A stretch of DNA of 64,000 nucleotides from Oligoflexia bacterium. GTDB lineage: Bacteria > Bdellovibrionota > UBA1018. Where the stretch lies: contig CAVWVI010000005.1 of NCBI GenBank assembly GCA_963758495.1, positions 29,960 to 93,959 of the forward strand, given 5' to 3'. A model generated the notes under the pieces. The model was not told where the DNA came from, made no database searches, and worked only from the letters and a program-made list of their open reading frames with translations. Shown piece after piece: positions 34,449-37,049 of this stretch. How positions within the stretch are numbered: position 1 is the first letter of the stretch; each line of letters begins with the position of its first letter. The position numbers and the translations under genes were made by a program.

Positions 34449-37049
34449 GTGCTCAAATTTTATAGAGTTGTATTTATAGGGGTCATGCTTTTATCGAAGA
34501 GTGCATACGCTGGTCTTAGATCTGAGGAAGCTATCTCAAAATGTGGAAATGACGAAGATTTCGCTGGGTGTCTTGAAGAAGCGCTGGCCGAAGAGGAAAT
34601 TTCGGAGCTGGAAAACAAAATTTTAAAAGGGAGTGATCAGCCAGATGAGATCATCGAGAAGTGTGATGTAGCAAACCCCAGAAGTACAGAATGTTCAGGG
34701 AGTCATTCTTCCTCGTCTTTAAGCTCTCATGACGAAATTTTAAGCTCCATTTCTCAGAGCGATAGTTCTGATTCCTCTTGTTTGAAGTTATCTTTTTCGT
34801 CTGGTCAATCTTTTGGCCAATCGACTGGCCAATCAATGAGAAGATCCATTTTGGCACATCATTATATTCAGATTCCAGGATTTGGCGATTCACCTAAATT
34901 GAAGTTATTTGTAAGGAAAGATAAGTTGCCGCTGATACGTGAAAATAAGTATGAATTATTTATTGGCGACGAGAAAAGGCCTTATAAAATTGAAGGGAAG
35001 TACAATCCAAGTACCTGGGAATTAACTTTAACTCCTCCAGTAGATAAAGTATCTGTCCAAAACTTTCCTCAAATGATCAGTGTTACGGTAGATCCTGATT
35101 TGAATATAATTTACAATATGAAAGTGACTCTATCTATGAGTCAAGAGAAGTATAGCTGTACTCGATGTGAACTTAAGTCGGTACATTACTCAGAATTAAA
35201 GAATTCATTCAATGGTGGCGTTGTCATTCCAAACGTATTTTATCGGTCAGGATATCTTGGGAATAGAATAAAAAATTGGGAAACAGCATTGGAAAAGGCT
35301 AAGCAAAAGCCGCCGGAAACCTATGTCAGCATGCATGTGTTGGGTTATGATGAGGATAATGAAGAAAGGAGCTATAACCTAAAGGAAATGGAGTATGCCC
35401 ATAGTAAAAATAAGAAATTTATTCATGCCTATGGAGATCCAGAGGCTGGAGAGTTTGCGTATATTGATGGAAGGTACGCCGCTAATGTACCAGAAAAAGA
35501 TTTTCATCGTGGGAATATCTATAAAGAAGAGACTCTTCATCAGTACATACCGTCTGCAGAAATTAGAAAAAAACTAGGAATTGATAAAATGAGGGAAAAA
35601 TATCAAGATGCCAAGTCAGTTTATAATGGAGATTTAGATGGTTTACTGACCACTTTAGATAATGTTGTGAGTGCCCCTTGGCCGGTGTCTTTTCATTGTA
35701 AGGGTGGGCGGCATAAAACTGGAATATTAGTGGGGGCTATTCGATGTCTACAGGGTGAGGACTGGTGGTATAATGGCCCAAAAGTTGAAATCAATGTGTG
35801 GTCTGGTTTTGACAGTTTGATGAATTGGGAGGTTTTACCTCAGTTGTTATCTCGAGTGAGTTCTTTGAAATGGCATAAAGTCAGTTTATCTCCAGCAGAG
35901 AAAGAGTATACGGATTTCAATCCTGCAATGTACAGATCAGAAAATATAGCCTTTATGGATGACTTATGCCGTGGGCGTCTATTTGAACGGCAGGAGCAAC
36001 TCGAAAAGTGGATTAAAATAAAGAGAAAGTTGGATGAGAAATTAGCCATGAATGGATTGGCAAGCTATAGTTGTATCTCTCCTGAAGACTTTGAAAATAG
36101 ATATAGAATTACATTTAAGAATAGATCTCTGCAAAATATTAAGGACCAAATTGTTGAAATACAGAAAGCAATCCAGAAAAATCCTCGAGAGGCAATTCAG
36201 GCTGCGGGAGGGGCAACGGGAGCCAAGTATCTTAAAGATACGCACGGTGAAATTCGTTTTATAGTTAAGCCCTACAGGGCTGCTGAGATCACCTTTGCTC
36301 ATAGTACAGTTCAGCGCTATTTACCGCGTAGTTTTAATAACTTCAGTTATTCTGCTCATAATGAAATCTTTGTCTCCCGTTTGGCTGAGATCTTGTCCAT
36401 CTCTGAGGGGCTTGTGCCAAAGGTTTACTTTGCTACGATGACAGTGAATAAAAAGGAAAAGGAACCGTGGATTATCATTGAGTTTAAGAAGGGCAAGAAG
36501 AGCTTCGCCCATAAAAACTCGGGTCGACAAAGTTCCGATTTTCGGGAATCATTAGCTCGACTGAAAAATGAAAAATATAGGAAGGAAGTGACCGAGGCAG
36601 TTTTATTCTCATTATTAATAGGTAATGTAGATTTACATCCAGAAAATATATTAGTGAATGAAAATAAAGAGCTAGGACTCGGACTAACGCTGATCGATTT
36701 TGGTTTGACCATGCCAACCACCAATAAGGAAACGAGTGAACATAAAAGGCCCGTTTTTAGTGAATTAGGACATGAGATGCTAGATAGAAAAACTATTTTT
36801 ACTTTTGCAGAGCAGTTGTTGAATCAAGATACTTGGAAAAGAATTTTAATGGCTATTAGTGAAAGTTACAATGATGTGAGTGTGAGAGGAGATATCCTGA
36901 AAGCCTTTGAAAGTAGGGCATTGTATCTCATTAGGATCAGAGATCGATTGATGAGTGAAGACAGTTGGTCCCCTGCTTTCGAAGAGGTCCTTAAACCATT
37001 AGATCCTTTTTCTAAGCATCGGAAAAAATTTTCCTCCTATTTGCAATAA
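34449..37049 (+). CDS. secreted multidomain protein: Ser-rich N-terminal region, PFA-DSP/Siw14-like phosphatase domain (variant active-site loop), C-terminal PI3K/PI4K-like kinase domain; candidate host-lipid-modifying effector
   Basis: 866 aa. Signal peptide MLKFYRVVFIGVMLLSKSAYA. ...VFYRSGY... and HCKGGRHKTGILVGAIRCLQ (35694-35723) resemble Siw14 [20 protein letters not shown]. Gly-rich AAGGATGAK (36201), FIVK (Lys codon 36267), LLIGNVDLHPENILV (36621) and LIDFG (36696) match the lipid-kinase catalytic and activation loops. Confidence 0.6.
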   Translation: MLKFYRVVFIGVMLLSKSAYAGLRSEEAISKCGNDEDFAGCLEEALAEEEISELENKILKGSDQPDEIIEKCDVANPRSTECSGSHSSSSLSSHDEILSSISQSDSSDSSCLKLSFSSGQSFGQSTGQSMRRSILAHHYIQIPGFGDSPKLKLFVRKDKLPLIRENKYELFIGDEKRPYKIEGKYNPSTWELTLTPPVDKVSVQNFPQMISVTVDPDLNIIYNMKVTLSMSQEKYSCTRCELKSVHYSELKNSFNGGVVIPNVFYRSGYLGNRIKNWETALEKAKQKPPETYVSMHVLGYDEDNEERSYNLKEMEYAHSKNKKFIHAYGDPEAGEFAYIDGRYAANVPEKDFHRGNIYKEETLHQYIPSAEIRKKLGIDKMREKYQDAKSVYNGDLDGLLTTLDNVVSAPWPVSFHCKGGRHKTGILVGAIRCLQGEDWWYNGPKVEINVWSGFDSLMNWEVLPQLLSRVSSLKWHKVSLSPAEKEYTDFNPAMYRSENIAFMDDLCRGRLFERQEQLEKWIKIKRKLDEKLAMNGLASYSCISPEDFENRYRITFKNRSLQNIKDQIVEIQKAIQKNPREAIQAAGGATGAKYLKDTHGEIRFIVKPYRAAEITFAHSTVQRYLPRSFNNFSYSAHNEIFVSRLAEILSISEGLVPKVYFATMTVNKKEKEPWIIIEFKKGKKSFAHKNSGRQSSDFRESLARLKNEKYRKEVTEAVLFSLLIGNVDLHPENILVNENKELGLGLTLIDFGLTMPTTNKETSEHKRPVFSELGHEMLDRKTIFTFAEQLLNQDTWKRILMAISESYNDVSVRGDILKAFESRALYLIRIRDRLMSEDSWSPAFEEVLKPLDPFSKHRKKFSSYLQ

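Follow-up and report, generated by a model that had tools for sequence, protein, structure and literature searches.

Gene and domain layout

Within a 64,000-nucleotide stretch of contig CAVWVI010000005.1 from an Oligoflexia bacterium (the window, to which all positions refer), an open reading frame on the forward strand (34449–37049, GTG start) encodes a predicted exported two-domain protein of 866 amino acids. The first domain resembles the PFA-DSP branch of the Cys-based protein tyrosine phosphatases (PTPs), the second resembles type II phosphatidylinositol 4-kinases (PI4KII), and the phosphate-binding loop (P-loop) of the phosphatase-like domain carries a lysine where the Cys-x5-Arg (Cx5R) signature has its arginine. 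We examined this substitution, its distribution among homologues and the architecture of the protein in which it occurs. An identical gene is present in an independent public assembly (Logan ERR11523676, locus L001).

The database gene call for this protein (P0001, 854 aa) starts at the ATG codon of Met13 (34485), 12 codons after the GTG at 34449, and a start at this position would remove the signal peptide. The GTG is closely preceded by the Shine-Dalgarno-like sequence AAAGGGGGGG (34437–34446, +), and translation from it adds back a signal peptide resembling those found in homologues. GTG 34449 therefore probably represents the true start, and the deposited one is probably an error.

Residues 1–21 (34449–34511, +) form the predicted Sec signal peptide, MLKFYRVVFIGVMLLSKSAYA, which ends in AYA with a glycine next to the predicted cleavage point and has a hydrophobic core of 2.82 on the Kyte-Doolittle scale. 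The following low-complexity linker (residues 22–130, 34512–34838, +) is acidic and rich in serine, with 27 Ser, 14 Glu and 8 Asp among the 108 residues from 23 to 130, and has no Pfam match. For the N-terminal region of residues 131–249 (34839–35195, +), no Pfam, NCBIfam or PDB match was obtained, and homologue matches begin near residue 230–250. The phosphatase-like domain spans residues 250–545 (35196–36083, +) and the kinase-like domain residues 561–866 (36129–37046, +). For the 866-aa protein as a whole, an NCBIfam search yielded nothing useful. The GC content falls to 0.385 over positions 34001–36000, which correspond to the 5′ half of the gene.

Lysine at the position of the catalytic arginine

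The P-loop (residues 416–425) is encoded at 35694–35723 (+) by CAT TGT AAG GGT GGG CGG CAT AAA ACT GGA and reads HCKGGRHKTG. Counted from the nucleophile Cys417, it contains Lys418 (+1), Arg421 (+4), His422 (+5), Lys423 (+6, the arginine position; codon AAA, 35715–35717, +) and Thr424 (+7). HMMER aligned this loop without gaps to those of Siw14 (HCNRGKHRTG) and AtPFA-DSP1, so that Lys423 coincides with the Cx5R arginine and Arg421 with the lysine at +4, and the same register was obtained against 32 bacterial homologues with the loop HCxGGxHRTG. The first-pass annotation of this DNA had described a PFA-DSP-like loop in which lysine replaces the catalytic-loop arginine and the basic residues are permuted, R(+4)/K(+6) taking the place of K(+4)/R(+6). 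The codons together with the ungapped alignments bore out the replacement, the alignment to Siw14 and AtPFA-DSP1 bore out the permutation, and the PFA-DSP-like character of the loop was further supported by a profile–profile (hhalign) comparison with plant PFA-DSPs. A shifted register with Arg421 as the catalytic arginine was rejected because Lys423 stands at +6 in every alignment; no alignment, whether with Siw14 and AtPFA-DSP1 or with the bacterial homologues, brought another arginine to this position.

The arginine at +6 that characterizes the Cys-based PTP superfamily is thus absent, Lys423 filling its column throughout, and the Ser/Thr at +7 is present as Thr424. Likewise, of the PFA-DSP active-site signature HCxxGxHR (PMC13573052) the protein retains His416, Cys417, Gly420 and His422, with lysine in place of the final arginine. 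The complete signature is found in the relatives from the same bacterial family that carry arginine at +6 (Arg type, as opposed to Lys type). At the DNA level, AAA or AAG occupied the +6 codon at 8/8 Lys-type loci for which DNA was available, and the Arg-type relative at locus L009 had CGG.

Since the independent assembly L001 is identical in sequence, an error in reads or assembly was rejected, and so was a decay limited to one protein, because the lysine is shared with 15 further homologues. An artefact, or a chance motif in a non-homologous protein, has a negligible probability in view of the identical assembly, the 15 further proteins with the same lysine and the strong profile, fold and hhalign statistics given below.

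Relationship of the phosphatase-like domain to PFA-DSPs

When a profile of the bacterial family was searched against the PDB, Siw14 (E = 1e-9) and AtPFA-DSP1 (E = 1.5e-8) ranked above every other PTP, and hhalign against plant PFA-DSPs gave a probability of 97.8% (E = 1e-12). The hhalign alignment covered the N-terminal NF..V..[FY]RS motif, the loop equivalent to the Trp-Pro-Asp (WPD) loop (YxDGxNP vs GIEGNKEP), the P-loop and the helix that follows it. An AlphaFold2 (AF2) model built from a 25-sequence alignment reached a predicted local distance difference test score (pLDDT) of 88.9 and a predicted template modelling (TM) score (pTM) of 0.89. In this model a strand (413–416), the loop (417–424) and a helix starting at 422 follow one another in the order typical of PTPs. 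Foldseek retrieved many PTP-fold structures, among them MptpB (E = 3e-4), a PTP of Clostridioides difficile and, at target TM-scores of 0.6–0.7, AtPFA-DSP1 and Siw14. The model, these matches and the invariant Cys417 consistently describe a PTP fold with a nucleophilic cysteine at the start of the loop. Pfam scores for Y_phosphatase2 (PF03162) lay around the gathering threshold of 27 bits, the full-length protein reaching 26.1 bits and the domain taken alone 28.9 bits. Among the family members, 21/25 matched Y_phosphatase2 at E ≤ 0.01 and 24/25 also matched Y_phosphatase3; matches to the TpbA, SsoPTP and polymorphic-toxin DSP-PTPase models were obtained as well.

Because of two insertions, the domain comprises about 300 aa, about twice the PFA-DSP core. 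The counterpart of the WPD loop is YIDGRYA (residues 338–344, 35460–35480, +), which hhalign placed on GIEGNKEP of AtPFA-DSP1. Gly341 of this loop is invariant in the family, but an invariant acid is missing, Asp340 being replaced in several members. A proline at the hinge of the loop is present in 39/41 other members, and only the window protein carries alanine there (Ala344, 35478–35480). Downstream of the P-loop, family conservation and an ungapped hhalign fragment delineated a Q-loop-like motif, EYTDFNPAMYRSENIAFM (residues 486–503, 35904–35957, +), with invariant Tyr487 and Asn499 and a nearly invariant Arg496. The fragment alignment, which is weak on its own (hhalign P = 0.034), places Arg496 on Arg188 and Asn499 on Asp191 of AtPFA-DSP1. 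We thus propose Tyr487, Asn499 and Arg496 as putative counterparts of Tyr179, Asp191 and Arg188, respectively. AtPFA-DSP1 itself has no WPD acid; His155 (+5) serves as the general base with the support of Asp191 and Arg188, Thr157 is important, and Arg156 uses its guanidinium to touch both the phosphate and a metaphosphate-like intermediate (PMC9038691). In Siw14, loss of the corresponding Arg220 abolishes activity (PMC13573052).

Judged by its sequence and predicted fold, the domain is a real but divergent bacterial relative of the PFA-DSPs. It is not a strict member, given its bacterial origin, the doubled size of its core, the exchange of Asp191 for asparagine and the borderline Pfam score.

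A bacterial family with Arg- and Lys-type loops

Searched exhaustively with HMMER, 1.84 billion cluster representatives yielded 49 proteins. About 44 of them correspond to the phosphatase-like half of the query, and four (P0002, P0004, P0006 and P0012) to its kinase-like half. A word-indexed homologue search found only the query itself, or only P0049 when the family profile was used. Genome contigs gave no match when scanned with the single protein; scanning them with an alignment of Lys-type sequences (A2) revealed four loci, the broader alignment A1 being too diverse for pattern design. A metagenome scan added only two further loci, and among plasmids neither domain had a match. The four members that could be placed in genomes belong to two Oligoflexales metagenome-assembled genomes (MAGs), a "Deltaproteobacteria bacterium" and an uncultured proteobacterium.

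The family shares the motifs NFGxV...IYRS, TIIYMN/SIHVxG, FxHS, YxDGxNP, HCxGGxH[R/K]TG, RYLQGGxW and LNPAEYEYxxHNxxxFRxEN. A hydrophobic, signal-like N-terminus was recognized in 30/37 full-length proteins (34 family members and 3 others). The Lys-type proteins other than the window protein all lack a kinase domain; the full-length ones are stand-alone proteins of about 400–580 aa that carry signal-like N-termini and are thus predicted to be exported, and the rest are gene fragments. One protein resembling the Lys clade, P0011 (489 aa), has a reading frame that breaks just before the P-loop (…NAVAPTLSLQRRSTQNRH…) and represents either a frameshifted pseudogene or an assembly error. In the literature, our search retrieved no description of a natural Cx5K phosphatase clade or of a bacterial PFA-DSP-like family, and nothing relevant on CX5K, natural Arg-to-Lys variants or the mutants R409K and R221K. 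We regard the family as a previously undescribed group of bacterial proteins, predicted to be exported, that is most similar to PFA-DSPs.

Readable P-loops were divided between 32 homologues with HCxGGxHRTG and 16 Lys-type proteins with HC[K/Q/Y]GG[R/K]HKTG, the latter count including the window protein and six genomic or metagenomic loci. When 13 full-length Lys-type and 28 Arg-type domains were compared (mean pairwise identity about 40%), Cys417, Gly419, Gly420, His422, Gly425, His326, Gly341, Tyr487 and Asn499 proved to be 100% conserved in both types. Thr424, invariant in alignment A1, was found in 13/13 Lys-type vs 27/28 Arg-type domains (the exception having Ala), and Arg496 in 12/13 vs 28/28. 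The relaxed constraint on other active-site positions that would be typical of a pseudophosphatase was therefore not observed, the arginine alone being changed.

The P-loop codons of the Lys-type loci differ synonymously. Two syntenic Lys-type genes from the pair of Oligoflexales MAGs (L002, 9521–10873; L004, 9494–10861) encode proteins with 72% identity and show a nonsynonymous divergence (dN) of 0.18; synonymous divergence (dS) is saturated, so that no exact dN/dS can be given. The flanking genes encode products that are 80–94% identical, with dN values of 0.04–0.11. Purifying selection acts on the Lys-type gene, which nevertheless diverges somewhat faster than the genes around it, a behaviour that is common for secreted and effector proteins.

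Monophyly of all Lys-type proteins was recovered in 0/100 neighbour-joining (NJ) bootstraps after removal of the variable loop columns. Instead, the window protein, the main Lys clade and the Arg-type pair P0020/P0023 grouped together in 90/100 NJ bootstraps and share the specific insertion HGN[IV]Y.... P0038 (L011) and P0043 constitute a separate Lys lineage with the loop H/F-CYGGRHKTG and a much longer insertion. In P0043 (327 aa), phenylalanine replaces the histidine preceding the catalytic cysteine, which makes this the sole Lys-type loop of its kind. As the Lys type is not monophyletic, arginine and lysine must have been interchanged at least twice.

The only feature that correlated with the lysine was a basic residue at +4: Arg or Lys occupies this position in 16/16 Lys-type vs 16/32 Arg-type loops (Fisher p = 3e-4, a value that ignores kinship), the nearest Arg-type relatives having Ile. 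A compensating arginine common to all Lys lineages was not found in the family alignment, where the K/R column alone discriminates between the types. Three Lys-type proteins have lysine at both +4 and +6, indicating that a guanidinium group in the loop is not strictly required.

Two readings of these patterns have to be weighed. The lysine loop might be a pseudophosphatase or substrate-trapping module that binds a phosphorylated ligand (a lipid head group, an inositol phosphate or a phosphoprotein) with very slow turnover and, in the window protein, positions the PI4KII-like kinase. This is the main rival explanation, and it draws on the view that the arginine is essential in Cys-based phosphatases, as illustrated by inactive Siw14 Arg220 mutants (PMC13573052). 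Furthermore, pseudophosphatases are common next to PFA-DSPs, for instance in the OCA clade, purifying selection would preserve a binding function just as well, and the window copy has the additional change of the hinge proline in its WPD-like loop. Yet in the known pseudophosphatases related to PFA-DSPs, the Cys, the His or even the complete loop is gone (CCGMGRHR, HSNKGKHR, HCTNGELI), whereas the Lys-type proteins retain Cys, His+5, Thr+7 and the Asn support without exception, and Arg496 in 12/13 cases, for which a pure binder would have no obvious need. Repeated R/K interchange in an otherwise unchanged site is also hard to reconcile with a trap, as is the absence of a kinase to target in every other Lys-type protein. 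We therefore rate this explanation as rather unlikely.

The first-pass annotation had included, among its options, an inactive domain that only targets the adjacent kinase to membranes. As a general role this is disfavoured, since none of the other Lys-type proteins has a kinase domain, and the recurrence of the R/K exchange and the retained catalytic residues speak against it as well. Its two other options, an altered substrate specificity and a substrate-trapping or binding module, are both compatible with these data. Rather, the recurrent exchange, the conservation of nucleophile, general base and supporting residues, and the absence of the kinase elsewhere make the lysine loop look like a functional, selected state with an autonomous role and not like decay.

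The kinase-like domain and its fusion

The annotation had also placed a kinase domain next to the phosphatase-like domain in one polypeptide, which was substantiated by kinase motifs and a PI4KII-like model. The AF2 model of residues 561–866 is of moderate quality (pLDDT 70, pTM 0.75). Its best Foldseek match was human PI4KII alpha (4hne, E = 2e-7, TM-score 0.64), accompanied by a second PI4KII alpha structure, 4hnd (E = 6e-6; TM-scores of the two 0.64–0.65), and followed by PI4KII beta, consistent with a PI4KII-like kinase fold. At the sequence level the relationship was more distant: Pfam PI3_PI4_kinase scored 20.4 bits, below the cut-off of 27.1, weak matches to Pkinase, LepB_N and ABC1 were obtained too, and sequence searches weakly reached the GNADAHGKN loop of HipA and the DFG motifs of protein kinases.

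The motifs expected of a kinase are nevertheless all present. They comprise a glycine-rich loop, AGGATGAKYL (586–595), together with the lysine of FIVKP (604–608; both within 36204–36272, +), which are kept in the homologues covering this region, and a catalytic loop, GNVDLHPEN (725–733), together with the Mg-binding IDFG (749–752; both within 36621–36704, +), which are invariant in 5/5 sequences of alignment A3. A CCPCC palmitoylation motif was not found, as no Cys-Cys dipeptide occurs anywhere in the 866-aa protein. As modelled, the C-terminal domain is an intact type II phosphatidylinositol 4-kinase-like kinase.

The kinase-like homologues P0002, P0004, P0006 and P0012 are stand-alone proteins, P0004 having a hydrophobic N-terminus. 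At locus L010, a 712-aa protein with a eukaryote-type Pkinase domain (3791–5929, +) is encoded 2.5 kb from the P0004 gene. No other protein among the 1.84 billion representatives matched both halves, so that the fusion is unique in this set.

The fusion bears on a second alternative, in which the domain acts as a phosphotransferase or phospho-relay: the lysine and the missing general acid would stabilize a phospho-cysteine that is passed to another hydroxyl group or exchanged with the kinase product. Phosphotransferase action has reportedly been observed for the Cx5R effectors SopB and IpgD, to which such a mechanism may be likened. It would fit the strict conservation of Cys and His but not of the transition-state arginine, the lack of an invariant WPD acid and the fusion to a lipid-kinase-like domain in the window protein. 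But the Arg-type relatives share both the architecture and the lack of the acid, nothing about the family is specific to transfer chemistry, and since the fusion is unique, the coupling cannot be general. We consider this alternative quite improbable.

Genomic surroundings

The genes next to 34449–37049 are of the housekeeping type (a glucoamylase-like enzyme of glycoside hydrolase family 15, a polyprenyl synthase, a sugar epimerase and an ATP-binding cassette transporter), and no operon logic was seen among them. PADLOC reported no defence-system match. A conserved gene neighbourhood of the Lys-type loci was not observed either, except for the closely related pair L002/L004.

Elsewhere in the window, two paralogues of about 885 aa (11487–14144, –, and 18643–21309, –) combine N-terminal ankyrin repeats with two AAA+ modules (AAA and AAA_2, ClpB/Cdc48-like). 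Such ankyrin–AAA+ fusions are unusual in bacteria and hint at an interaction with eukaryotic cells. Three open reading frames of 794, 277 and 132 aa (51083–53467, +; 43213–44046, –; 38150–38548, +) had no Pfam match at E ≤ 0.001. The sole Rfam/ARAGORN match in the window was a tRNA-Arg with anticodon CCT (55983–56057, +). Every 2-kb bin of the whole window (1–64000) has a positive GC skew, and the forward strand carries most of the long open reading frames, which is what a leading-strand segment remote from origin and terminus should look like.

Proposed function

The explanation that we favour, with a probability of roughly 0.5, is that a Sec-exported PFA-DSP-like phosphatase with a selected lysine and a PI4KII-like kinase together form an effector that remodels inositol lipids or inositol phosphates. 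The catalytic competence of the lysine loop, the substrate class, the export and the delivery to a target cell are deduced from sequence and predicted structure. Action inside another cell is suggested by the fact that the kinase domain needs ATP and the protein appears to be exported, and inositol lipids or phosphates would be the most plausible targets of a PI4KII-like fold combined with a PFA-DSP/MptpB-like phosphatase.

In the proposed mechanism, the substrate would be highly anionic, an inositol pyrophosphate or the head group of a phosphoinositide, and Cys417 would attack a terminal phosphate on it. The scissile phosphate would be held by the P-loop's backbone amides together with the ammonium group of Lys423, and neighbouring phosphates at the rim of the pocket would bind to Lys418 and to Arg421, the basic residue that is obligatory at +4. 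His422, backed by Asn499 and Arg496, might activate water as His155, Asp191 and Arg188 do in AtPFA-DSP1. The loss of the guanidinium group could be better tolerated than in classical PTPs if the leaving group is good (a phosphoanhydride) or the substrate assists. Kinase and phosphatase would then act from one chain in the ATP-containing target cell. A more specific version of this scheme envisages a competent natural Cx5K site, compensated by the basic +4 residue and the histidine base, in a secreted kinase fusion that interconverts inositol species, possibly by phosphotransfer, in a host or prey cell; it remains tentative, and we find it somewhat doubtful.

A further alternative concerns the substrate. 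The protein could be an exported phosphatase acting on pTyr, pSer or pThr in proteins, or on envelope phospholipids, with bacterial, prey or periplasmic targets, and the likeness to PFA-DSPs and PI4KII would then reflect fold ancestry only. The additional family matches to Y_phosphatase3 (MptpB-like), TpbA, SsoPTP and polymorphic-toxin DSP-PTPase models are compatible with this view, and so are the identification of relatives in Oligoflexales MAGs and the signal-like N-termini of most members. It is made improbable by the His+5 with its Arg/Asn support, which belongs to the specific PFA-DSP signature HCxxGxHR, by the need of the kinase for ATP, which is absent outside the cytoplasm, and by the fact that the best structural match of the kinase domain is a phosphoinositide kinase.

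Several observations weigh against the effector explanation that we favour. In the Arg-to-Lys mutants R409K of the Yersinia PTP and R221K of PTP1B, kcat is reportedly lower by about three to four orders of magnitude. Given the weakness of these mutants of classical PTPs and the inactivation of Siw14 by loss of Arg220, a plain lysine could be a severe handicap. The window protein shows further deviations in Phe256Gly and Leu414Ser, and together with Pro344Ala in the WPD-like hinge these may put the window copy at a catalytic disadvantage relative to the stand-alone Lys-type proteins. The counterpart of Asp191 is Asn across the family, and the alignment of the C-terminal motif to PFA-DSPs on which this assignment relies is weak taken alone. 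Phosphoinositides and inositol pyrophosphates are eukaryotic molecules, so that the proposed substrates depend on a presumed eukaryote-directed role. Finally, no kinase-like gene was present in the available flanks of the six other Lys-type loci (10 kb where the contig allowed, with 2/6 loci on contigs of 2.6–3.6 kb that hold almost no flanking DNA), and no PTP-like gene near two of the kinase-like homologues in their available flanks. The surroundings of the other Lys-type genes thus lend no independent support to a functional link between the two domains.

Implications

The arginine of the Cx5R motif is treated as a defining and indispensable residue, and its absence routinely labels proteins as dead enzymes. 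The family described here represents a natural experiment on this point, since Arg and Lys have been swapped at least twice while the other active-site residues stayed fixed. Should the Lys form be active, the rule by which pseudophosphatases are called would need an exception, the coupling between +4 and +6 would offer a handle on how P-loops stabilize the transition state for highly charged substrates, and the acid-free mechanism of PFA-DSPs would be shown to tolerate an R/K swap. A competent Cx5K site, if true, would make this the first PTP-superfamily clade for which independence from the 'invariant' arginine has been demonstrated. Moreover, the data reveal a bacterial family, predicted to be exported, that is related to eukaryotic inositol-pyrophosphate phosphatases. 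The PI4KII-like fusion points to unexplored effector chemistry in Oligoflexia and Bdellovibrionota-like bacteria, comparable to the pairs of phosphatidylinositol kinase and phosphatase effectors in Legionella.

Comparison with known systems

With PI4KII, its best structural match, the kinase-like domain shares the glycine loop, the lysine and the D-x-H-x-x-N and DFG motifs, and a weak LepB_N match in Pfam connects it to LepB of Legionella. Legionella pairs the phosphatidylinositol kinase LepB with the Cx5R phosphatase SidF to make phosphatidylinositol 4-phosphate. In contrast to PI4KII and LepB, the domain found here stays below the Pfam cut-offs, lacks CCPCC and has a catalytic loop (DLHPEN) that is closer to the GNxDxHxxN of HipA. 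To our knowledge, a combination of kinase and phosphatase-like domains in one polypeptide has not been described for PI4KII or LepB systems.

MptpB gave the best Foldseek E-value for the phosphatase-like domain and likewise far exceeds a minimal PTP core through an insertion ahead of the P-loop, but the TM-score is low (0.28–0.31) and sequence identity amounts to about 17%. Phosphoinositide-directed loops are marked by a basic residue at +4, to which PTEN adds one at +1. The Lys-type loop with Lys+1 and Arg/Lys+4 resembles MptpB (CFAGKDR) and PTEN (CKAGKGR) in this respect, although both keep the arginine at +6 and have no histidine at +5.

The closest correspondence is with the PFA-DSPs, including Siw14. 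Shared features are the PTP fold, the N-terminal NFxxV...[FY]RS motif, a G-x-[DE]-G-x-x-x-P loop in place of the WPD loop with no invariant acid, a P-loop of the form HCxxGxH[R]TG, in which +5 is the catalytic His and +7 a Thr, the subsequent [RK]xLQ helix and a weakly aligning C-terminal EY...R..[DN]..F motif. PFA-DSPs are cytosolic proteins of plants, fungi and protists, whereas the present family is bacterial and predicted to be exported. Its domain of about 300 aa contrasts with about 150 aa in PFA-DSPs, the difference arising from two insertions. Gly-Gly takes the place of Arg-Gly at +2/+3, Asn stands at the position of Asp191 family-wide, and the Cx5R arginine is Lys in the window protein and its 15 relatives.

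The OCA clade (ScOca1/2/4/6), STYX and the inactive myotubularins also combine a PTP fold with a non-canonical signature and occur alongside active relatives, and several pseudophosphatases work by targeting a fused or partner protein, as the first-pass annotation had proposed for the window protein. Unlike these proteins, which lose Cys, His, several loop residues or the entire loop, the bacterial family has exchanged the arginine for lysine alone, and has done so recurrently.

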